This document shows, in pieces, positions 27,516-64,000 of a DNA stretch of 64,000 nt. The notes beneath the pieces are model-generated. The model ran no database searches. It was not told where the DNA came from and saw only the letters and a program-made list of their open reading frames with translations. A program made the position numbers and the translations under genes. Source of the stretch: Dictyostelium discoideum (taxonomy: Eukaryota); contig CM000154.2 in NCBI GenBank assembly GCA_000004695.1, positions 4,480,001 to 4,544,000 on the forward strand. Direction: 5' to 3'. How positions within the stretch are numbered: the first letter of the stretch is position 1; every line of letters starts with the position of its first letter.

Positions 27516-37670
<10,155 letters not shown>

Positions 37671-38149: not shown

Positions 38150-41100
38150 GGAATGGCTCATGTGGTTTTTTTATTTTAATTTCAATAGACCCACACGTCT
38201 CAAAATCATTCACACAATTAGGTCTTTTAAGTTCAACAGGTAAATGTCATACATTTTCATCGGATGCTGATGGTTATGTTCGTTCAGAAGGTGTTGGTAT
38301 CGTTGTATTAAAGAGATTAAAAGATGCAATCAAAGATTCAAATAATATCTATTGTGTAATCAAAGGATCAAGTTCAAATATCGATGGTAACTTTGATAAA
38401 TTAAACTTTTATTCACCATCAAAATAATCAATATCAGATTCATTGATTTGACCATTGGTTGATTTGATTGCTAATTTGATGTGTGAAACTCATGGTACTG
38501 GTACTCCAACTGGTGATCCAATAGAATTAGAAGGTATATCAAGAGTTTTCAATAATACTAAAATACCATCAACAACAACAACAACAACAAATAATAATAA
38601 ACAAGTTTTAGTTGGATCAATTAAATCAAATATTGGACATCTTGAAGGTAAGTTTATTAATTAAAAATTAAGTCTATAAATAACCAAAGTCAATCATTAC
38701 TAACATTAAATATTGTTTATAATTAATAACAGCATGTTCAGGAGTTGCATCATTAATTAAATGTTGTTTAATGTTTAAAAATAAACTATTTCTTCAAAAT
38801 ATTAATTTCAAAGAACCAAATCCATTAATTAATTTTAAAGAATGGGGATTAAAAGTTGTCACTGAACCAATTAAATTTAATGAAAATAAATCAACTGTCA
38901 TGTTACTTAATAACTTTGGTATAACTGGTAAAAATATATAAATTTTATCTTTTTTTTTAAGTTTATAAAATAAATAATTAACATTATATCATTAATTTAG
39001 GTTCAAATGTTTGTTTAATATTATCTGAATTTAAAAATAATAATCATAATGACTATAGTAGTGGAGTCGAAATTAATGAAAGAAAGAAATATTTAATACC
39101 ACTCTCAAGTAATTCATCAACATCATTAAATAATTATAATTAAACATTCAAATTCAAATTCAACCTCATCATCGACAATAACAACAACAAGTTTCAAAGA
39201 ATACATAATCAAATTAAATTCAAATCAACATCATTAATTCAAAAATCAGTTATAATCGCAAGTGATTGGAATGAATTTCAAGATGAAAATAATCAAATCA
39301 AATTAAATAATAGTGATAATTTAATTTCAAATATTACAGTTGAAAAAAAGAAATCACCAATCACAGTAATTGTATTATGTGGTTAAGGTTCACAATATAA
39401 TAAAATGGCATTATCATTATATGATAACGAACCAGTATTTAGAGAATCTGTCAATAGATTCGATAAAGAGTTATTCAAATATTATGGTTATTCAGTTTTA
39501 GATAAATTAAGATCAATTGATGAAGATTTAATATCAATTCATCATCCAATTTTAGCACAACCTGCAAATGTTATCATTCAAGTATCACTTTATGAATTAT
39601 ATAAACATTGGGGTGTTTCAGCAGATATTATCATTGGTCATTCTCTTGGTGAAATATCATCGTCATATTGTTCAGGTATGATTGATTTTCAAACATTATG
39701 CTACTTGACTTACCATAGATCAGTAGCTCAAAATAGAACCATAGGTACAGGTAGAATGTTATCAGTTAATATTAGTTCAGATGAATTCATTAATAAATAT
39801 CAATCTACAACTAGATATAAATCATTAGAAATTGCATGTTACAATTCACCAACATCAATCGTTATCTCAGGTAAAGAAGACTTATTAAATGAAATTACCA
39901 AAGATTTCAAATCAAACGATATCTTTTGTTCAATGTTAGGATTATTATCATCATTTCATACATCAAGTCAACAAATGATTAAAGATGAAGTATGTTCATT
40001 AAATATTTCATCGAAACAACCATCGATAGCAGTATTTTCAACAGTTACAACCAGTTTATTCGATCATCAAACTTCACCGTTCAATGCAGGTTATGCATTT
40101 AATAATATTCGCCAACCAGTTCGTTTCACACAAACAATAACAAATCTTTACAAACATATCGAATCAAATGATATGGGTAATGAAATTACATTCATTGAAG
40201 TTTCACCACATCCAACATTACAATATTACTTAAATCAAATGAAATCAACTCAATCAAGTTACTTTAATAATGGTAAAAACATTACAATCTATTCACCATT
40301 AAATAAAAAGAAGAATGATTATAATGAATTCTTAAAGACAATCTCTTTATTATTTGTCAATAATAATTTTGATATTAATTTCAAATCACAATTAATTAAT
40401 AACAGTATTAACCATACAAACCAATCAAATAATTTACCACTTTACCAATGGGATGATAAAGAATACTTTAAACTAAACTCATCACTTGAAAAGATTAAAA
40501 ATGAAGGTCCATCCATTCACAGTCTTGGTAATAATACAGATTCACCATATCCATCATATCAAACATTTATCGATATCAAGAAATTACCATTCCAATGGTT
40601 AAAAGGTCATCAAGTTAGTGATAAATTCTATTATCCAGGAATGGGATATGTTCACAATTTATTATCAATTTATCCATATCAAGATATTACAATTAGCTCA
40701 TTAGAATTTAAATCACCATTATTATTAACAGAAGGTATTAATCAATGTTTACAAACTACAATTGCACCACTATCAAAGAATGAATTCAATATTAAAAGTC
40801 ATTATAAAGATCAAAAAACAAATCAATGGATATTATCATCTCTTGGTAATTTTAGTTTAACCAAACATAACAGTATCATCATCAACAAATTAATTAATAT
40901 TCAATCATTAAAAGATAAATGCAATTTTACAATCATTCCAAAACAAGATTTTTATGAAACTATTAGAATTAAAGCAAATTTAATATACAAAGGTTTATTT
41001 CAAGGTGTAAAACAATGTCATATCGGTAATAATTGTTCATTAGCAATAGTATCACTAAATGAAATTTATAATCAAAAAGAATATAATCATTTAATTAACA

Positions 41101-42268
41101 ATGGCAATATGAATACATTCTTTAATAGGGCAATTTTAGATACTTGTTTACATGGAGTTTTAGGTGGATTTACAAAACCAGTCGTACTTGATAGAATTGA
41201 AGCTTTCAAATTTTACTCTTCAAATATTCCATTATTAAATGAAAATGACAATAGCAATAATAATGGTATTGTTTTAGATATATTAAAATATTTGGTTAAA
41301 TATTCAAATGATTCAATTGAAAATATAATAATACTTTCAAAATCAAAACTAAAATGGGAATTAGAATTATTAATCAATCAAAGCAAATTTAAAAAAGATA
41401 ATAATATTAAATTCCATTTCTATCAAATCGATATTGAAGATTCAAATAAAGTTAATCAAGTATTAAATCAATTAGAATTAAATGAAAATATTACAAACAT
41501 TGATTCAATCATTCATTTTGCATTTATGAATGATATTGTGATGTTCAACAAATTGATATGAATCGTTTAAATAATACACATGGTGCTAAAACGATTGGAG
41601 CAATTAATCTTCACAATCAATCAATTAATTGTTCATGGAATATCAAACAATTTATAATGGCATCATCAGTAGTTTCAATATTTGGATCAGATCAACAATG
41701 TTGTTATGTTAGTGCATGCAATGTAATCGATTCATTATCAAAGTATAGACATTCAATTGGATTACCATCTTTAGCCATTAATTTAGGTGCGATATCGTCA
41801 ACTGGTTTCATATCACGTAATAATGCAATTGAAACAATGTTTCAGAGTTATTTTTTAAAAATATTCTCACCTCAACATGTTATTAGCTCATTAGATTTAT
41901 TCATTCAAAATCAACATCAATATCCAAATTATTGTGTATCAGATTTCGATTTTGAAATTTTACCATCAACTTTAACAAACCAATACCATTCAAAATTTGA
42001 TTTTGGAATTAAATATTTCGCTGGTGATAATAATAATGGAACTATTCACTCAACAATTTTAAATAAAATCAGTGAATTATTATCAATTGACGAATCTAAA
42101 ATCAATGAAGATTTACAACTCACACAATATGGTATGGATAGTTTAGTAATTGTACAATTAAAGAATTTTATCGATAATCAATTAGGTCATAATATTATCA
42201 CAATTCAACAATTACAAAATAATAAAATCAATCAATCAATTGAAATCATTAAATCAGCTCACAACAAA

Positions 42269-42314
<46 letters not shown>

Positions 42315-42350
42315 GCAATAATAATAGCAATAATGAACTGGTATAAAAAT
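38150..42350 (+). pseudogene. Rearranged PKS pseudogene copy: starts at exon-4 homolog, has a 56-bp micro-inversion in KS, a nonsense codon, an internal ~3 kb deletion removing C-MeT+ER, a frameshift before KR, and truncation after ACP
   Basis: 38425..38480 is the exact reverse complement of the KS segment ATCAAATTAGCAATCAAATCAACCAATGGTCAAATCAATGAATCTGATATTGATTA. TGTGGTTAAGGT at ~39380 (CGQG -> CG*). DH sequence ...[31 protein letters not shown] joins directly to KR. ...MNDIVMFNKLI* versus ...[17 protein letters not shown] (frameshift ~41540). It ends NNELV* at 42346, and homology to A/B is lost at ~42350. Confidence 0.7.
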
Positions 42351-51000: not shown

Positions 51001-52622
51001 ATCCCCATTCTTTAAAATTAATTAATGGATTTGGTTCTTTGAAATTAATATTTTGAAGAAATAGTTTATTTTTAAACATTAAACAACATTTAATTAATGA
51101 TGCAACTCCTGAACATGCTATTATTATTTATTATTATTATTATTATAGATAATATTTAATGTTAGTAGTTAATAATTGACTATAGTTATTTATATTTAAT
51201 TAAATTTAATTAACTTACCTTCAGTATGTCCAATATTTGATTTAATTGATCCAACTAAAACTTGTTTGTTATTATTTATTAATGTAGTTGTTGACGCTTT
51301 ATTATTGAAAACTCTTGATATACCTTCTAATTCTATTGGATCACCAGTTGGAGTACCAGTACCATGAGTTTCACAATAATCAATATCAGATTCATTGATT
51401 TGACCATTGGTTGATTTGATTGCTAATTTGATATTTTCATACTGAGATGATTTTGATGGTGAATAAAAGTTTAATTTATCAAAGTTACCATCGATATTTG
51501 AATTTGATCCTTTGATTACACAATAGATGTTATTTGAATCTTTGATTGCATCTTTTAATTTCTTTAATACAACGATACCAACACCTTCTGAACGAACATA
51601 ACCATCAGCATCCGATGAAAATGTATGACATCTACCTGTTGGACTTAGCATATCTAATTTTGTGAATGATTTTGAAATGTGTGGGTCTTTGAATAAATAA
51701 ATAAAATATCAAATTAATATCTTTTTTTTTTTTTTTTTTTTTTTTTTATCACATACCTAATATAAAATTAACACCACCAACAATTGAAACATTTGATTTA
51801 TTTGATTTAATTGAATTATATCCACAATTAATTGCATTTGACGAACTTGAACAAGCTGTATCAATTGTTAAATTTTCACCTCTATTTTTTAAAATTAATA
51901 TAATAGTTAAAATTATAGTTGTGGTAAAAGAAAAGATAAATCAAAAACATACCTAAAATCAAAGCAATAACCAATTCTATTTGCAATAGAATGAGTTGTG
52001 GAACCAAAAATATTATTTTGAGTTTCCAATGGTGATCTTTGAAGATCATTATAATCAATAGTACTACTACCAATAAATGTACTTGTATTGGTACCACGTA
52101 AACTAATTGGATCAATACCACTATCTTCTAATGCTTCCCATACACCTGTTTGTTGATTTTATTTTAAAAATATAATTAATAAATAAATAAATATAAATAT
52201 CTAAATTTTTTGTGGAAAAGTTCAAAAACACTTAATAAATACATACATTTTAATAATAATCTTTGTTGTGGATCTATTGAACTGACATTATCATTGCTTG
52301 GATTAATTGCAAAGAAGATTGGATCAAATTGTTTCCATTCATCAAGTGGAAGTAAACCAGCAAACTTTGAAACGATTTCACCATTTAAATAATAATTATC
52401 AGACCATCTTTCAGAAGTTGTAACGATTCCATCCAATCCATTCAATAATTCATTAAATAATTGATTTGGTTTTGAAATTGATTCTTTTAAATTACCACTT
52501 GGAAATCTTAAACCAATACCAATCACTGCAACATCACCACTACCATCAACATCATCATAATCATTTCTATCCCTTATTAATTTATTATTATAAGTGCTAT
52601 TATTGTGAATATTTTCTGTCAT
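42863..52622 (-). CDS. Type I iterative polyketide synthase B, near-identical convergent paralog of A; 7 exons on the - strand: 52247..52622 (ATG at 52622), 51953..52145, 51757..51881, 51219..51686, 50923..51117, 43493..50851, 42863..43383; about 3078 aa
   Basis: Same exon/intron structure and phases as A. The long ORF 43485..50462 plus an upstream open frame covers AT through R. Same motifs as A. The first listed M of ORF 52176..52658 is a non-ATG start; the real ATG ([24 protein letters not shown]...) is at 52622. Confidence 0.85.
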
Positions 52623-52743
52623 TTTTTTTCTTTTTTTTCTAAATAAAACAATAAACAAAATTATATAAAAAATTTTAAAGTATTTATAATTTTTTTTTTT
52701 TTTTAATCAAGTTAAATTTTCATTTAATTTTTTTTTTTTTTTT

Positions 52744-53009
52744 ATTAAAATTTAAAAATTTTAATCAGAAAAAATAATAATTGTGTGTGGGGTAACCTAT
52801 TTAAATTTTATTTATTTTGATTCAATTAATTTTTTTTTTTTTTTTTTTAGTGTGTAGACTGACCACATTCACCACTGTTGAAAATGAGATATAAACTGAA
52901 AAAACAATTCAGTCTTTTTAAATTTTACCTGAATAATAAAAACCATTGTTTAAAAACAGGGTGTGGTGGGACGGGTTATTTTTTCTGATTAAAATTTTTA
53001 AATTTTAAT
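52744..53009. repeat. Small element bounded by 34-bp perfect inverted repeats (ATTAAAATTTAAAAATTTTAATCAGAAAAAATAA at 52744..52777; reverse complement at 52976..53009) with a GT/G-rich 198-bp core; MITE-like or hairpin RNA locus about 120 bp upstream of the PKS B start codon
   Basis: Exact 34/34 complementarity checked base by base. Core contains TGTGTGTGGGGTAACC ... GGGTGTGGTGGGACGGG and a second short inverted repeat AGACTG/CAGTCT. Confidence 0.6.
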
Positions 53010-53367
53010 TAAAATAATTTCGATAAAAACATCATCATTTTTAAAAAAAAATAAAAAAAAATTAATATTATTTTAAAAAAAAAAAAAAAAATCTATTAAA
53101 ATTGAAAAGATTATTATTATATTCTTTATTGAATGATTTATGTGTTTTTTAATATTTTTATTAATAAAGAACATTTTGGTTAATAGTTGAAAAAATGAAA
53201 TGTAATTTATAATAAATGATTATTATTTTTTTTGAAATTTTTTTTTTTTTTTTTTAAAAAAAATCATATTTTCAATTTTAAAGGTAATAAATTAAACAAA
53301 CAAACAACAAACAAACAAACAATAGTGATGGTTCTAAGGATGAAAATAATATAAATGGTTAAAAATT

Positions 53368-53377
53368 AATAATAATA

Positions 53378-53449
<72 letters not shown>

Positions 53450-53456
53450 CATTTAT
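53368..53456. repeat. (AAT)n microsatellite, noncoding
   Basis: About 29 tandem AAT units with one AGT interruption. Confidence 0.95.
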
Positions 53457-53723
53457 TAAAAATTATAATAACCAAAATCAATATGACAAAAATAATTTAA
53501 TTTTTAATAACAAAGATAGTAAATATAAAATTAGTTTTAATAAAGAGTTTTCAATTATAAAAATCAAAGAATCAATAATCAATGATTATTTTAAATTTAA
53601 TTTATTTAAAAATAATCAATTAGTTTATAATAGAATTTTAGCTGATATTTAAACTGGCTATTATGATGGGAATCAAGATGAAATTTTATTTAAAATACAT
53701 GAATATATCAAAAGAAAATTCAC

Positions 53724-54030
53724 AACTGTTCTATCAACTACTCATGCTAAACCATCAACCATAACTGTTCCATCAACTACCCATCTGCACTACCAACCAC
53801 TACTGGCTCACCAACTACTCAGCCGCACCACCAACCGCTACTGTTCCATCAAATACTCATGCTGCACCATCAACCACTACTGTTGCATCAACTACCATGC
53901 TGCATCTTCAACCCAACTGTTCCATCGACTACTCATGCTAAACCATCAACCACTACTGGCCCACCAACTAATCATGCTGCACCACCAACCACTACTGGCC
54001 CATCAACTACTCATGCTTCACCATTAAATT
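53724..54030 (+). repeat. Degenerate tandem repeats (~36-39 nt unit) encoding Pro/Ser/Thr-rich PSTTHA(A/K)P(S/P)TTTG units; frame broken by indels, so probably a relic of a mucin-like repeat gene
   Basis: About 8 recognisable units. The last two units plus stop read ...KPSTTTGPPTNHAAPPTTTGPSTTHASPLN*. Upstream units are out of frame (e.g. CATCTGCACTACC). Confidence 0.6.
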
Positions 54031-54535
54031 AATAATAATAATATTAATAATAATAATAATAACAAATAAATAAATTAACAAATAAATAAATAAATAAATA
54101 GATTAATAAATAAATAAATTAATAAAAAAAGGTAAATAAAAAAAAACTAGTTTTAATATATTTGTGTATTTTTAAAATTGTAAACATGTTTTGAAAAAAA
54201 AAAATTATTTTATTGTTTAAATTTGGTTTAAAATTCAAATAAAAAATGATCAACTCTAAAAACGAAACCCTTTTCAAAGAATGATAATTGTTGGACACCA
54301 CTGCTACAATCAATACCATCATTGAGTTGAAAATTACCATTGAAACCAAATTCAAAAAATTCAGTTTGATAACATGTTGGAAATTGACTACTTGATGTGA
54401 AACATTGTTGATTTAAACCTTTATTAATCTTTGAAAAGTCATTTCTATTTGTATCTAAATTTATTTATTAAATATTATATTTTTGCAACAATGAAAACAA
54501 TGATTAAAATAATAAAAAAATAAATATTTTTTTTA

Positions 54536-56338
54536 TTAATTACGTTTTATGAATAAGGCATCAAAAGGTTTACATTGCATTGCCAAACCAACTTCTCCTT
54601 CAACATCAATTGGAATATCAGTTGGATTGACTATTTTAAAATTCTTTAACATTATCACCAAAAATGTAAAAGTCAAAGATTCTGTAAATCTTCCTCCTGG
54701 ACAACCTCTAGGTCCTGTTTTAAAAAAAATAATAATGATGATTATTATTATTATTATTATTATTATAAATTAGTTGTAAATTAAAAAAAAAAAAAATAGT
54801 GGTAAATTTTAATTCCTTTTTAAAATGGTATCAAAACATACCTGCACCAAAATGAAAAAGTCCTTTTTGATATAAAGGTTGATTTTTAAATCTTTCTGGT
54901 TTAAATTCTAAAGCATCTTCACCCCAAAACTCTTTTGATAAATGTGTACCACGAAGATTTTTAATTATCATTGTACCTTTTGCAATTTTATATCCATTTA
55001 CTTCAACATCTTCTGTTGTTTTATTCGGTTCAGTTATTGGTACTGAAGAATTATATCTATATGATTCTATTATTCAAATTAATACAAAATTTATTTTTTG
55101 AAAAAATATATCAACACATATTAATACCAATATATATATATATATGGATAATTACCATTCATTACAGAAATAATATATGGATATTTTGTATGATCAGCAA
55201 ATGATATATTATTTGTATTATTATTTTCATCATTTCTCATGATTTCTTCATATATTTTATCTTGAATTTCAGGTTTATTAATTAATTGACCAATTAAAAG
55301 ACTAAACCCATTGGATGTTGAATCAACTGCTGCAAAAATAATATCAGAAATTGAAAACAAGATTGAATCATAATGAATTGAACCATCTAAATAATTTTTA
55401 TAATAATTCTCAATAATTGGAATATTGTTTAGTTTTGAAGATGTTTCATCAGTAGTTTCATTTTTCAATTCATTTTCTTTTTCATATTTAATTTTAATAG
55501 CATCAAGTTTTATACCTATAAAATCTTTTAAAAAAAAGTAACTAGAAATAATATCATTCTTTGACATTGATTTTATATCTAATGGAAATAAAAATGGTAA
55601 ATAATCAGAGTAAATTAATAATCCAGCAGCTTCAAAAATGCATTTAATCTTTTCTACAATGATTAGAATGGTTTCATCATTCTCTTCAATTCCTAATGTG
55701 AAATTTAATATTAATTTAACAGCAAGAATCCTAATTTGATTTGGTGTATTTTTAACAAGAGTTTCTTTATTATCTTTACAAAGATTACTAAACATTTCTA
55801 AAATAAATTTATTTGATTCTAATCTGCCATTATTTAACTTTCTTGTTGTAATTTCACTTGTAAGAATTCCTCTTAGAACATAATGATAATCACCATTTGA
55901 AGAAATAATGTTATAATCTTTACCAAAAAATCTTGAGAATTTAATATATCTTTCTTTGAAAATTTCTCTATGTTTTTTATTAAAACATTCATCAATAACT
56001 TCAGGCCCTGTTAGAACAACAATTTCAACACTACCCAATCTTAATCTAAAAACTTTGCCATATCTTTCATAGAAATCATTTACACTTTTTGGGAAATCTT
56101 TTGCGTTAATTTGTAATAAATTACCAAAAACTGGAATTGTAGAAGGACCAGGTATTAATTTATTAATTTTTTTAATCCTACCTTCAAATAATAAATCCTA
56201 TTTAAAAAAATAAAAGTATAAGTAAGTGTTTAATTTTTAATAATCAATAATATATATAATATTTTAAAATTTTACTTTTAATATTAATGATAATACTAAT
56301 ATTGTAATTGTTAAAATAATTGTAAATATTGTATTCAT
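54536..56338 (-). CDS. Cytochrome P450 monooxygenase, 4 exons on the - strand: 56276..56338 (ATG 56338), 55156..56197, 54842..55066, 54536..54714; about 502 aa
   Basis: N-terminal membrane anchor MNTIFTIILTITILVLSLILK, proline hinge PGPSTIPVFGNL, I-helix AAVDSTS, ExxR (ESYR), PERF, and heme loop split by the intron FHFGAG|PRGCPGGRF. GT-AG junctions and phases are consistent (63+1042+225+179 = 1509 nt). Confidence 0.8.
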
Positions 56339-57478
56339 TGTAATATTATAAAATATTTTAATTGAGAATCTTTTATATTAAAGTTTTTATATTAAAAAAA
56401 AAACTATTTAAATTATAAAATAAAAAAAACCAATAATGTTTTTGTTAAAAACAAATTGATATATTTAAATTTTGGGGAAGTGGGTTAAAATAATTAATTA
56501 TAAAAAAAAAAAAAACCACCAAATTTTTTTTTTTTTTTTCTTTATTAATAATTAAAAAACTTTTTTTATTTCTAAAAACGAACTTGAAAACAGTTTAGAA
56601 AACAGTTTTTAATTTATTTTTTGAAACTGTTTAATTTTATTTTATTTTAATTTTAAAAAAAAAACCAAAATAAAAAAATGACCATTGTACCTTTTGTAAT
56701 ATACTTCAATAAACTGTTTTTTTATTATTTAATTTTAAAAACAAAAATAAAAACAAAAATAAAAATAAAAATAATGAATTAAAAAAAAAAAAAAAAAAAG
56801 TTATAAGATATCTAATTAAGGGTGTAAAAATTTCAGCAATATTTTTTATTTTTATTAATTTTTTTCTGTAATAAATTCGTAAACATATAATAAAAAAGAG
56901 ATATCAAATAGAAACAAAAAAAATAAAAAAGTTTTAACATTTCAAAAAAAGAGAAGTTTAAAATTTAAGGGGGTAAAAAAAACATTTTTTTTTTTTTTTT
57001 TGTAAATTGACAAACACAAAAGCAAACTATACATTAAGTTAAATCTATTAAATAGTTTTTTATATAGAGTCTCGGGGAAATCACCAGATTTCAAAAAAAA
57101 AAATAAAAAAAAATAAAAAAAAACATAATTTTGGGTCAAATAAAAAACAAAAATTTTTTTTTTTATAGTGCGAATTAAAATTAATTATTTGTGTTGAAAG
57201 TAATATCCAAACAATCTAACCTTTTTTTTATTTTTATTTTTTTAATAACTATAAACGTCATCAAATTTTTTATTTAATTTTTTTTTTTATTTCTATAATA
57301 ATATCAAATTTATTTATTTTATTTTATTCTATTTTATTCTATTTTATTCTATTTTATTGTATTTTATTTTATTTTATTTTATTTTATTTTATTTATTTGT
57401 AAAAGAGAAAAGACACAAAATATAGATAATAATAATAAGGGATAGAAATGATGATGATGATGTTGATAGAAATGATGA

Positions 57479-58875
57479 TTTTTTTTTTTTTTTTTTTTTT
57501 GATATAAATAAACTATTGTAGTATGTTATTTTTATTTATTTATTTTAGGTTTTTTAGTTTTTGTGAATTTAAAATGGTATGTTATTTTAGATTAGGTAAT
57601 TAATAATTAATTGGTGGTGTAATTGTTGGAATTGGTTCATTAGTGTTTATGCTCCATTCTTTTTTAAATTTTTTGATTGTTTCGGACCATTGGGTTTCTT
57701 TTTGAGTTTTTGTGAGGTTGTTTTTAATTGAGTATTGGTTAAAGTTTGATAATGTTCTTGAATATTCCAATCTTATTAGCTTGTGCCATTTTGATTTTAA
57801 TATATCATAATCTAGTGTTGTGTTGTTTATTTGGTTGTTCCAATTATCAATTGATTGAGTTATATTGATGTCAAATAATGATTTGCATAACCATATCCAT
57901 ATTTGGTGAATAACTAATGAGATTATGTTCCAATATGCATGTGTTCTGACTAGATCAAGATTTGTGTTTATATAATTCCAGTTGAACCTGTATTTTTTAT
58001 ATTGTGCGTTTTCTGGAAAATGAAAATTAATATTGATAGTTGGATCTGGTTTAAATGCTTTGTTGTTTGTTTGTGGTTTATAAATGAGTGTGTATAATTT
58101 TGTTGTTTGGTTTTTTGTTAATGACCAGTTTTTGTTTCCATTGCAATTTTTATATATAAAATATTTTAATTTGTCGTGGTTTATGAAGTTGATTGTGTGC
58201 TGACAATTGAAAAACAAATGACCATAGGGATCATTATTCATTTCATTGTTGCAAATGGGGCAAACTTTGTTGTGTAGATGATTAATCGGAAGACATCTAG
58301 CATGGAATCTTTGCATTGTATCACGGCCTTTTGGATCTTTTAATTTTTGAATTTTGACAAAAAGTTGGTCGTATGTGTATTTCCATAATAGTTGTATTGA
58401 TTGTTGGTGCGAAGTAAGAAGTAGATCTGAATATTTCTTGCCAATATAGTCTTTTGATTTGCATTGGTGATTGTTGAGTATTGTCGAGTAGATTTCTTTG
58501 AGTGTTGGTGGTAGTGAAATATTATTTGTGTTTAATGTTTGAGAGGTTTGGTTTTTTGTTAATATTGGTTGTAGGGTTTGAACTTTATCTTTTAGATGTC
58601 CAATTTGAGTTGCATAGTTTTCCCATTCTTTTTTGATTTTTATAAGGTATGGAGAAGAGATTGATTTGTTGATGATTTGATCCATCCAACTTATCATGTA
58701 TATTGAATTGTTTGCAGATTTATGCTTTTGTAAAAATCTGTTGTATATCCAAATCTTTTGAGCAACTTGTCGTAATTGTATATTCCACATACCCCAACCA
58801 CCTTCTTTTAATGGTGTTTCAACAAATTGAAACAAATTGAAACAAGTTTTTTTAATGTTTAAAAAAGGAATCTCT
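57479..58875 (-). mobile_element. 5'-truncated non-LTR (LINE-like; TRE-type in Dictyostelium terms) retrotransposon: C-terminal part of ORF2 with CCHC-like Cys/His motif, ~100-nt 3' UTR and poly(A) tail
   Basis: ORF 57600..58835 (411 aa) has no recognisable cellular-gene features, no plausible start, and the motif CPICNNEMNNDPYGHLFFNCQH (C-x2-C-x10-H-x4-C) near its end. A(22) tract (T-run at 57479..57500 on +) lies ~100 nt 3' of the stop. The open frame ends at an in-frame stop at ~58875. Confidence 0.5.
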
Positions 58876-59648: not shown

Positions 59649-62600
59649 ATGAATAATTTAGAAATTATAAATTTAATAGATAAAGGTGTTGCAATTGTTG
59701 GGGTGGGGTTTAGAATTCCTTCTGGTAATAATGAAAATTCAATTTGTTCACCAGATGATTTATTTAATAATTTAAAGAATGGTTTTGATGGTGTTAGTAG
59801 TACATCAGAAAGATGGAGTGACAATTTTCATAAATTAGGTGAAATTAGTAGTCCAAATGCAGGTTTATTACCATTTAATGAATGCAAATCATTCGATCCA
59901 TTATTTTTTGGTATTAATCCATCCGATGCTCATCAGATTGATCCTCAACAAAGATTATTATTAAAATGTACATGGGAAGCATTAGAAGATGCATCTATCG
60001 ATCCAATTTCAATTCGTGGTACAAATACTTCAGTTTTCATTGGTTCTTCAAATATTGATTATCAACATATAAATAAACACCAAGACTCAGTTTTAAAAAA
60101 TGTAATAGCACAATCTGCCTATGCTGTTTCAAATAGAATTTCATACTGTTTCGATTTTAATGGTCCATCATTATCAATCGATACTGCATGTTCATCATCA
60201 TTAAATGCAGTTTCTCAAGGTTATCATTCAATATTAAATGGTACTTCCAATATGTCAATTGTTGGTGGTGTAAATTTAATATTAGGTAAGAATTACATTT
60301 AAATATATTATATATAAAATACACTCATTAATTAATTTTTTATTTAAATATTTTACTAGATGTTGGAATGATAAAAGCATATTCGTATTTAAGCATGTTA
60401 AGTAAAACACATGGTAAATGTAAAGCATTTGATGAAAGTGGCGATGGTTTTACACGTGGTGAATGTGCTACTATTGTAGTTTTAAAAAATTTACAAGATG
60501 CAGTTAAAGATGGTAATAGAATTTATTGTGTAATTAATGGCTCAAGTTCAAACGTTGATGGCGGCGGTCATATGGATAAAGTTAACCTTTATTCACCATC
60601 AAAGCAATCACAATTTAATAATATTAATTCAGCATTTAAATCAACCAATGGTAAACTTTCAATTAATGATATTCAATATATCGAAGCACATGGTACTGGT
60701 ACTAAAACAGGCGATCCAATTGAAACTGAAGCAATTTCAATGGCTTTTAAAAATAGAGATAAATCAACACCAATTCTAATTGGTTCAATTAAAAGTAATA
60801 TTGGTCATTGTGAAGCTGGTTCAGGTGTTGCATCATTAATCAAATGTTGTTTAATGTTTAAATATCAATGCTTTTTACCAAATATTCATTTCAAAAATCC
60901 AAATCCATTAATTAAATTCAATGAATGGAATTTAAAAGTTGTAACATCACCAATTCCATTCAACAAAAGAATTAATGAAAAACCAGTTTCAATGATGATT
61001 AATAACTTTGGTGTAACAGGTTCAAATTGTTGTTTACTTATTTCAGAATTTAAAAAACAAGATTATGAATCATATGAAAACAACAACAACAACAAAAGTA
61101 ATCATAAAAATATATTAATACCATTCTCAGCAAATTCATCAAATTCATTAAATCAATACCAATCAAAATTTAAAAATATAATTAATAATCAATTCAATTT
61201 TATTGATTTTACCGCAAATCAAATTTATTCAAAATCAAATTATCTTTATCAAAGATCAGTTGTAATTGCAAGTAATTCAAATGAACTTTTTGAAAAAATT
61301 TTAAATAAAAAACAAATTCAAACTAAAAATTCAATCATTTCGAATATGTCATTCAAAGGAAAGAACCCAATTACAATTTTTGTTTTTTCAGGTCAAGGAT
61401 CACAATATCCTAAAATGGCTTTAGAATTATATAATAATGATGAAATTTTTAAGAAGTCAATTGATTTAATCGATTCAAAATTATCAAAGTACTATGGTTA
61501 TTCAGTATGGGGGAAGTTAACAACGATCAAAGATGATGACTTGACCTCAATACATGATCCAATTTTCGCACAACCAGCACTGTGTATGCTTTCAGTATCA
61601 CTATTTGAAATATATTGCCATTGGGGAGTAAATCCATCATTTATTCTTGGTCATAGTCTTGGTGAAATTTCAGCAGCATATTGTTCTGGAATGATCGATT
61701 TAGATACATTCTGTTATACAGTTTATTACAGATCAATCGCCCAATCTAAAACAAATGGTTGTGGTAGAATGTTATCAATTAATATCAGTGATGAAGAATT
61801 TAAATCAATGTATTCTCAAAAGTATCCACAAATTGAAATTGCGTGTTATAATTCACCTCAATCAATTGTTGTGGCAGGTAATGAATCAATATTAAATGAA
61901 ATTTCGAAAGAATTAAAAGAAAAAGAAATTTTCACTGCAATGTTAGGTTCATTATCATCATTCCATACAAGTAGTCAGCAATGTACAAAAGATAGTATAT
62001 TACAACTAAACATTGAAAGTAATCAACCAAAAGTACCAATATTTTCAACAGTTACAACAAATTTATTTAATGAATCAAATCGATTTAATTCACAATATGT
62101 TTATGATAATATTATCAAACCAGTTAAATTCACACAAACAATTTCAAATATTTATAAACATATCGAATCAAATCAATTAAATAATGATATTGTATTCATT
62201 GAAATTGCACCACATCCAACAATATCATTTTATATTAAGCAAATGGTACCATCAAGTTTAAATGAATCAGTTTCAGTTTATTCAGCACTTCACAAGAAAA
62301 AGAATGATGTCGAAGAGTTTCAACAAACCATTTCAAATTTATATTGTCAAAATGGATATAGTATTAATTTTAAATGTCAATTGGAAAATAAAAAATCAAA
62401 TCAATCAATAAATTTACCACTTTACCAATGGGATGATGAATTATACTTCGCTCAAACTCAAACACTTGAACAATATACAAAAGAAGGACCACCAATCGAT
62501 CATCTTGGTCTATCAAACTCTTATTATTCACCATTTAAAAATTCATATAGAACATTTATTGATATAAATAATAAACCATTCCAATATCTTAAAGGTCATA

Positions 62601-64000
62601 TGGTTAAAGGTAAATACTACTTCCCAGGTTGTGGTTATATCGATATTATTATTCAACTTTATAAAAATCAAGATATTTTTATTAGTTTTATTGAATTTAA
62701 AACACCATTAATTTTAATTGAAGGTATCAATCAATATTTACAAACAAACATTCAACAAACTGGTAAAAGTGAATATCGTGCACAATTTCATTTCAAAGAT
62801 CAAAAATCAAATGAATGGATTCAATCATCAAATGCAAATTTCCAATTATTAGATCATGGTAATGATATACCATCAAATTATAATATTGAAGAAATTATTA
62901 AAAACAAATGTAATTTGAGCAAATTAACAAAGAATGAACTTTATACACAAATAAAATCAAAAACTGGTTTGAATTATACTGGTGTTTTTCAAGGTGCTAC
63001 TGAATGTTATTTAGGTAATGATTGTTCATTATCAGTTTTATCTTTAAAATCTCAAACAAATTCATTTTTAAATATACCAATTTTAGATACATGTTTACAT
63101 GGAATGTTAGTATTAATAAATGATCAAAGTCAAATTGTATTTGATAAAGCCATTGGATTTAAATATTATTCATCAAACATACCATCGGATCTTAAAGAAT
63201 ATAAAGATAGTATTTATGTTTATTCCAATTTAAAACCAAAAAATGCTGATTCATACCATGGATCTATTATAGTAATGTTATCAGATGGTTCAGTTTTATA
63301 TGAAATTCAAGAAGTTATTTTTAAATCATTAATTCCAATCAAACATTCACTTAAAATTGAGTATCCAAATGATGAATTATACAAAGTTCATTTACAATCA
63401 AAAGATTCTCAAATTCCAACGCCATCATCATTCAAATCAATTATTTATGAAAATGATTTCTTCCATTCTGCACTTAATATTCCAGAAGATTTATTCAAAT
63501 ATATTTCAACATTATTTTATAAAGATATTATAAAAAGATGTCCAGAAATTAATATCAATAAAATTAATTCTCATAGTGTTAATGAAATTATTTCAAGTTT
63601 CAGTAAAATTTCAAAAAATCAAAGATTATTTAGATTTGTATTTGAAACAATAAAAGAGAATGGTATTCTTAATAGTTTGGAAGAAAATGATGATGCTTAT
63701 TTCGAATTTAATGAATTAGTTATTAAATCATCAAAAATTATTTCAAAATTATTATTCCCACTAGAAAGTGATAATGATAATGAAGATTTACCTCAATCAT
63801 TATTTCAAAATGGTTTAATGGATAAAATTTATAAATGCAGTTATTTAAGAAAGAAGTATCAAATGATTTCACATGTCATTATACATTCAATTAAAGAGAT
63901 TATTAATAATAATATTATAATTAGAATTTTAGAATTTGGAGGAGGCACTGCGTCATTATCAGTTGAAGTTATTGGAGAAATCGTTGCATTACTTCAAGAG
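59649..64000 (+). CDS. Divergent type I PKS D, 5' part (runs off window end): exon 1 59649..60285, exon 2 60360..>64000 (KS-AT-DH-CMeT seen)
   Basis: [30 protein letters not shown]. Intron GTAAGAAT...TACTAG (60286..60359), phase 1. AT motif GHSLGE (~61650), [17 protein letters not shown] (~62600), C-Me[11 protein letters not shown] (~63930). The frame is open to the window end. Confidence 0.8.

Follow-up and report, generated by a model that had tools for sequence, protein, structure and literature searches.

In a 64-kb stretch of Dictyostelium discoideum DNA (hereafter, the window), we found a 266-bp unit that is enclosed by a perfect 34-nt inverted repeat and lies shortly upstream of PKS B. 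We tentatively favor the interpretation that this unit serves PKS B as a lineage-specific regulatory cassette located upstream, one that provides developmental control of the GBF (G-box binding factor) type, and that it does not represent an RNA gene. The informative sequence of the unit is in its 198-bp core.

The left arm of the repeat (52744–52777; ATTAAAATTTAAAAATTTTAATCAGAAAAAATAA as read on the plus strand) and the right arm (52976–53009) are exact reverse complements at 34 of 34 positions and are separated by a spacer of 198 nt. An initial annotation had described such a unit from the sequence, and its observation was confirmed, with its interpretation being partly supported. In each arm, the outer 22 nt (ATTAAAATTT-AA-AAATTTTAAT) constitute a 10+2+10 palindrome on their own, and the inner 12 nt (CAGAAAAAATAA) are the sole asymmetric portion. 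A longer, imperfect version of the repeat (42 nt, 95%; 52736–52777 and 52976–53017) includes outward extensions at 52736–52743 and 53010–53017 that are complementary at six of eight positions, a match that is without significance in DNA composed only of A and T. The core was found to be atypical in composition, as had been claimed, with a GC content of 27% compared with an intergenic median of 15% for 198-nt windows and with 6% for the arms. The core also contains the nested pair AGACTG (52856–52861) and CAGTCT (52910–52915) that had been pointed out, and the distance of approximately 120 bp to the PKS B initiation codon was likewise correct, the left arm beginning 122 nt upstream of 52622 (minus strand).

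The maximum inverted repeat in 40 third-order Markov simulations of 64 kb was 14 to 20 nt, which rules out a chance origin for the 34-nt repeat, and the 34-mer was not matched in any of 100 shuffles. The runner-up among exact inverted repeats in the window was 18 nt in length, and the longest in five related Dictyostelium loci did not exceed 20 nt (non-low-complexity repeats with arms up to 1 kb apart in both cases). An artefact of assembly or cloning fold-back is also ruled out, given that 282 nt are identical at 100%, and in the same orientation, in the independent chromosome-level D. discoideum assembly GCA_054883475.1 (locus L011, 13322–13603).

The rebuilt gene model for PKS B starts at 52620–52622 on the minus strand and consists of seven exons encoding 3078 amino acids, the same length as that of the gene call in L011. 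The rebuilt protein had no exact match in the protein collection searched, and homolog searches yielded only short cluster representatives. The P450 gene at 54229–56339 (minus strand) shows complete identity with the corresponding stretch of cyp514A1 of D. discoideum AX4 (Q54FM9), and the window therefore corresponds to the AX4-type PKS/P450 cluster. The initial annotation had contrasted PKS B with PKS A (ATG at 27516, plus strand), and PKS A indeed does not have the element. The two genes do not provide a comparison between an insertion and an empty site, however, because their upstream regions are wholly unrelated: nucleotide homology (94–97%) begins only at position 27565 for PKS A and 52561 for PKS B, within the coding sequence, so that the absence of the element from PKS A is uninformative. 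The proposal that upstream DNA differentiates the paralogs is reasonable if applied to the whole PKS B upstream region from approximately −48, and not to the element alone.

The canonical unit of the cluster is a divergent pair in which a PKS gene and a P450 gene are separated by 1 to 1.4 kb. Examples are provided by cyp514A4 (L014), by other D. discoideum strains (L009 and L012), by D. cf. discoideum (L010 and L015), and by window positions 2268–3040. PKS B resembles these units only to approximately 48 nt upstream of its ATG (window position 52670). The adjoining 1.8-kb segment (52671–54489), which extends from the 5′ end of PKS B to the 3′ end of cyp514A1, holds the element together with an (AAT)n tract and 38-nt tandem repeats, and it had no counterpart in the nine PKS/P450 cluster loci compared (approximately 190 kb from five assemblies). 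Given that upstream homology ends at approximately −48 and that the 1.8-kb segment is unique, PKS B must depend on this segment for its regulation. In D. cf. discoideum, the homolog closest to exon 1 of PKS B is 97.9% identical over 143 nt, and its NH2-terminus starts with MTEN, as does that of PKS B; the NH2-terminus nevertheless differs from that of PKS B, and the upstream region is completely different. The DNA in which the element is found, and which has become the upstream region of PKS B, is young, rearranged, and lineage-specific. The orthology of the loci from other species on which the term lineage-specific is based is not secure, a point against the cassette interpretation.

The (AAT)n tract and approximately seven copies of the 38-nt C/A-rich tandem repeat are located at 53360–53447 and 53725–53990. 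A frame of 225 codons that is N-rich and STP-rich (53350–54024, plus strand) contains one internal stop, has no Pfam match, and may be a gene remnant. A Pfam scan of conceptual open reading frames (ORFs) of the 1.8-kb segment yielded nothing significant, and look-ups with 36- and 160-amino acid ORFs returned no matches. The cyp514A1 protein (575 amino acids) has a COOH-terminal extension of approximately 75 residues relative to its 500- to 502-residue paralogs, encoded at 54229–54489 (minus strand). Homology to the 3′ ends of the paralogs stops at 54490, indicating that the 3′ end of cyp514A1 has been replaced by the element-bearing 1.8-kb segment. A stub of a PKS first exon (57421–57470), in which the start codon is destroyed, is divergent from cyp514A1 and has been truncated by a T22 run together with a retroelement (ORF, 57600–58835, minus strand). 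Inversion of the P450 segment beside PKS B was dropped as an explanation for the locus, given that cyp514A1 retains this truncated PKS stub of its own.

Additional PKS pieces in the window include a 5′-truncated copy between PKS A and PKS B (38168–42346, plus strand), a third PKS 5′ end within 1–5528 (ATG near 2270, minus strand), and a more divergent PKS (approximately 73% identity) near 61–63 kb (61217–62745). Recent duplications make the locus a patchwork. In GCA_054883475.1 (CM142511.1; L011 and L014), window positions 1–6666 (plus strand) are joined to the reverse complement of 58819 to 44228, with identities of 100% and 99.98%, respectively, and a retroelement of approximately 3.9 kb with a reverse-transcriptase gene is present at the junction. 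These joins imply that the two assemblies differ by the inversion of approximately 52 kb (6666–58819), a stretch that contains PKS A, PKS B, and cyp514A1. The difference reflects either a genuine inversion event between retroelement copies in opposite orientations or an incorrect join in one of the assemblies.

The response element for GBF has the consensus (T/G)G(T/G)G(T/G)G(T/G) (PMC2257962), and this consensus is matched at two sites in the core, with three overlapping matches at 52782–52792 and one at 52960–52966. The first candidate G-box (TGTGTGTGGGG; 52782–52792, plus strand) corresponds to CCCCACACACA on the sense strand of PKS B and is located at approximately −160 to −170 from the ATG. 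The second (GGGTGTGGTGGGACGGG; 52959–52975, plus strand) contains one exact consensus heptamer followed by TGGG, adjoins the right arm, and is located at approximately −337 to −353. In the sense direction of PKS B, the core thus starts with CCCGTCCCACCACACCC (52975–52959) and finishes with CCCCACACACA (52792–52782), both boxes having the same orientation and being C-rich on this strand. The string GGGTGTGGTGGGACGGG and the string TGTGTGTGGGGTAACC (52782–52797) each occur once in the window. G-box 1 is an 11-nt K/G run, and 10-mers of this type were found four times in 64 kb, compared with an expectation of 0.45. All four KGKGKGK matches in the 1.6-kb intergenic region between PKS B and cyp514A1 fall within the element, at approximately 16 times the density for the window. 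We infer binding of GBF at the two boxes from matches to a degenerate 7-nt consensus that is itself over-represented across the whole window (60 heptamers observed versus 31.6 ± 6.4 expected).

The G-boxes are positioned approximately 100 and 280 bp upstream of TATAAATA (52682–52689, minus strand), which lies outside the element, 60 to 67 nt before the ATG, and is probably the core promoter of PKS B. On the sense strand, a T-rich stretch and an A-rich leader come after it, and the combination of these two features with a TATA sequence is usual for core promoters of D. discoideum. The core of the element contains promoter-like sequence of its own: a TATA-like TATTTAAAT (52798–52806, plus strand) immediately 3′ of G-box 1 and a T19 run followed by AGTGTG (52830–52848, plus strand), which is a candidate start-site context. 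Initiation by pol II in D. discoideum usually takes place at a G preceded by a T-run (PMC6161686). Both of these features are directed away from PKS B, a point against the cassette interpretation. The core may also be able to fire a divergent transcript from the opposite strand, and downstream of this candidate start there is no convincing gene, only the interrupted frame at 53350–54024.

The layout in which a C/G box abuts TTTAAATA is common to the core and to the cyp514A promoters of the cluster. G/C boxes beside a TATA sequence were detected in every promoter of the PKS/P450 cluster, and they are normal regulatory elements of the cluster. The canonical PKS–P450 intergenic regions (2268–3040 and 56340–57420 in the window, as well as those in L009, L010, L012, and L014) share conserved G/C boxes, including AACCCACTTCCCC directly 5′ of TTTAAATA approximately 170 nt before each cyp514A ATG as well as the palindrome CACACTTGAAAAC...GTTTTCAAGTGTG. 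A STAT-like TTGATTCAA at 52817 was discounted because such sequences were not enriched (10 observed, 7 expected), and a scan for bacterial promoters and terminators was uninformative.

In the mechanism that we propose for the cassette, zinc-finger factors of the GBF type would bind the two G-boxes, and the bound factors would bring about developmental, post-aggregative induction of PKS B. PKS A, with its unrelated upstream DNA, would not share this induction. The internal TATA sequence and T-run may also start a divergent transcript that is either non-coding or derived from a gene remnant. The predicted boxes resemble those of the GBF-dependent promoters of sigN genes (PMC2257962) in that there are two short G/T-rich (C/A-rich) consensus boxes within a few hundred base pairs of the ATG and in that the surrounding DNA is approximately 90% A+T, whereas they differ in that a perfect inverted repeat of 34 bp encloses them. 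For a developmentally regulated Dictyostelium gene, paired upstream G-boxes are ordinary; the perfect bracketing is unusual, though not unprecedented in kind. Further GBF-dependent promoters with paired G-box/CA-rich sequences are those of cotC/SP60, cprB, and lagC.

Inverted repeats around a directional promoter between two genes are also characteristic of bacterial invertons such as fimS and hin. The perfect repeats of the PKS B element tightly bracket its promoter-like core in the same manner, and recombination between the arms would keep them identical. The element might accordingly be viewed as a eukaryotic chromosomal inverton, an invertible cassette whose core flips between the 34-bp arms and thereby turns the G-box/TATA/oligo-dT promoter toward or away from PKS B. 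We consider such a scenario extremely improbable. The two independent assemblies (the window and GCA_054883475.1), both of them consensus assemblies, have the core in the same orientation with 100% identity, and only this one orientation was observed. The element also differs from the bacterial systems in its location on a eukaryotic chromosome and in that no site-specific recombinase was identified, there being no recombinase nearby other than that of a retroelement. In addition, 34 bp is short for homologous recombination, and invertons have no known precedent in Dictyostelium chromosomes.

The initial annotation had also suggested a long-hairpin RNA gene, and the evidence was against this suggestion. 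According to this alternative, the arms would form the 34- to 42-bp stem of a primary microRNA (pri-miRNA), a small interfering RNA (siRNA) precursor, or a small non-coding RNA driven by the DUSE motif. The whole 282 nt do fold more stably than shuffled sequences (z = −4.8 for the plus strand and −5.4 for the minus strand) owing to the arms, and the AGACTG/CAGTCT pair followed by TTTTT superficially resembles the architecture of Class I RNA (PMC7919456). All of the excess stability was contributed by the A/U-only arms, however, with the 198-nt interior folding no better than shuffles (z = +0.7 for both strands). The stretch bounded by AGACTG and CAGTCT (52856–52915) likewise showed no excess folding energy on either strand, with a 71-nt inner candidate around this pair having z values of −0.4 and +0.5. 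The stem is thus confined to the arms and does not form a continuous stable hairpin with a short loop. Moreover, transcription from either of the internal start candidates would yield an RNA with only one arm.

Searches for RNA gene signatures also argued against a hairpin RNA. No Rfam match was obtained with cmscan, either for the window at the gathering threshold or for 52500–53300 at E ≤ 10. The DUSE motif, [AT]CCCA[ACT]AA, is located approximately 60 nt upstream of the start of non-coding RNAs, and the conserved 11-nt motif of Class I RNAs (CCTTACAGCAA / CTTACAGC) lies beside the 5′ stem (PMC3188802, PMC7919456). No exact DUSE was present between 46756 and 56087 (at least approximately 3 kb on either side of the element), the nearest look-alikes (TCCCACCA and CCCCACAC) being imperfect, and the 11-nt motif was not found on either strand of 52736–53017. 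A DUSE-driven or Class I RNA was rejected on the basis of the lack of both motifs. The arm sequences were not included in the miRNA supplements of PMC6161686 and PMC4894637. ARAGORN detected no tRNA, and inspection by eye revealed no RUGAUGA beside the 5′ stem that would indicate a box C/D snoRNA. The element shares with miRNA precursors and Class I/DUSE RNA genes of D. discoideum an intergenic location, a T-run before G, and a stem that joins the ends, but its stem consists only of A and U and surrounds 198 unstructured nt, and both the DUSE and the Class I motif are missing. We judge an RNA gene at this position to be highly unlikely.

A genuine long hairpin in the D. discoideum assembly GCA_054859355.1 (L012, 9040–9256) is very different from the element, with a folding energy of −122 kcal/mol and a z value of −19. 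This near-perfect hairpin of approximately 205 nt (9045–9252), which has perfect ends of 20 nt (TCACGCTTGATTAAGGTACG), is flanked by two cyp514A genes in tandem. It gave only sub-threshold, generic plant-MIR-like matches in Rfam and was not found in the window, in the other loci compared, or in the miRNA supplement of PMC6161686. The hairpin may represent either a foldback element or an miRNA precursor specific to the strain. At 9400–9500 of the same locus, the G+C-rich palindromic GTGCC(C)AAAAAGGCGCCTTTTTATTTTATTAC is present twice, 66 nt apart, amid very A/T-rich DNA. A 22-mer common to the element and L012 (52901–52922 in the window and 9622–9643 in L012) was dismissed, given that the extended alignment was no better than that for other A/T-rich windows.

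The cassette interpretation leaves the perfect identity of the arms unexplained. In the proposed mechanism, the A/T-only arms would be the footprint of the arrival of the cassette, and not a functional RNA stem, with arrival having occurred either by insertion of a small element with terminal inverted repeats or by a recent local inverted duplication. Each of these two events also constitutes an explanation of the unit in its own right. In the first, the unit is a non-autonomous DNA transposon similar to a miniature inverted-repeat transposable element (MITE), a type of element also raised in the initial annotation; it would have been inserted upstream of PKS B so recently that its repeats have remained identical, with any regulatory effect being a by-product. 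The terminal inverted repeats, the length of 266 bp, and the non-coding nature of the unit (longest ORF of 36 amino acids) fit such an element, and a second copy was not found in the sampled loci. The perfection of the repeats (34 of 34, against 14 to 20 nt in the null simulations) and their sharp inner boundary favor a transposon, as do the absence of the element from all paralogous promoters compared and the rearranged state of the surrounding region, with retroelements close by. D. discoideum also hosts three families of DNA transposons, Tdd, DDT, and Thug (PMC5633606), and the different small palindromic element in L012 is present in one strain only.

Several observations weigh against a transposon. 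No second copy of the arm or core was detected either in the 64-kb window (up to three mismatches) or in the related loci (blastn with a word size of 7). This copy screen covered loci L007 to L015 (approximately 170 kb), and the region of the element was compared with seven related loci from five Dictyostelium assemblies (approximately 150 kb in total). A family of fewer than approximately 100 copies could escape a sample of 215 kb, and even 280 kb corresponds to <1% of the genome, so that a low-copy family could be missed. The sequences flanking 52744 and 53009 share only T, and the candidates for a target-site duplication were limited to AT, TA, and TTAA, which are self-complementary parts of the repeat, and to TTT for the 42-nt version, which lies in a T-run. 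The ends of the repeat are unlike the termini of Tc1/mariner (CAGT...) or piggyBac (CCC...) elements, and the G-boxes are direct, not inverted, and so are not subterminal transposase sites. Scanning of JGI metagenomes with a 24-mer of the arm gave a single match, to an unrelated bacterial contig, which was attributed to chance. The element resembles MITEs, which are 100 to 600 bp in length, A/T-rich, non-coding, located near genes, and bounded by terminal inverted repeats; it departs from them in the lack of a copy family in the sampled loci, in the lack of a demonstrable target-site duplication, and in termini that were not matched to a known superfamily. The Tdd, DDT, and Thug elements, which are the DNA transposons known from D. 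discoideum, are much larger, and thug-S, a larger, intron-containing transposon, was ruled out as the source. MITEs in Dictyostelium were not reported in the literature searched. We thus regard a MITE-like origin as possible but doubtful. We consider it unlikely that the element represents, as its first known example, a Dictyostelium MITE family not described before that bears GBF sites and rewires paralog expression.

In the second, a local inverted duplication or template switch in native promoter DNA generated arms that have neither mobility nor function. The element is single-copy in all the DNA sampled and has no demonstrable target-site duplication, both consistent with such an event. 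The outer 22 nt of the arm are already palindromic, and A/T-rich quasi-palindromes are sites of replication template switching. Rearrangement also gave rise to the surrounding 1.8 kb. The spacer of 198 nt is long for a template switch, however, and an inverted duplication and a single-copy transposon are difficult to tell apart. We consider this origin, taken as the full account of the unit, to be rather improbable.

D. discoideum has approximately 40 near-identical PKS genes, and their individual regulation is, to our knowledge, largely unknown. PKS A and PKS B are approximately 94% identical, and yet their upstream DNA is completely unrelated from approximately −48. The cassette with its two candidate G-boxes is a concrete, deletable candidate for the means by which a recently duplicated PKS gene acquires an expression pattern of its own. 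At present, it is a modest, locus-specific observation, the weight of which would be raised by the detection of genome-wide copies or of orientation switching. If the cassette is mobile, it would be the first example of a small inverted-repeat element that spreads GBF sites in the D. discoideum genome.
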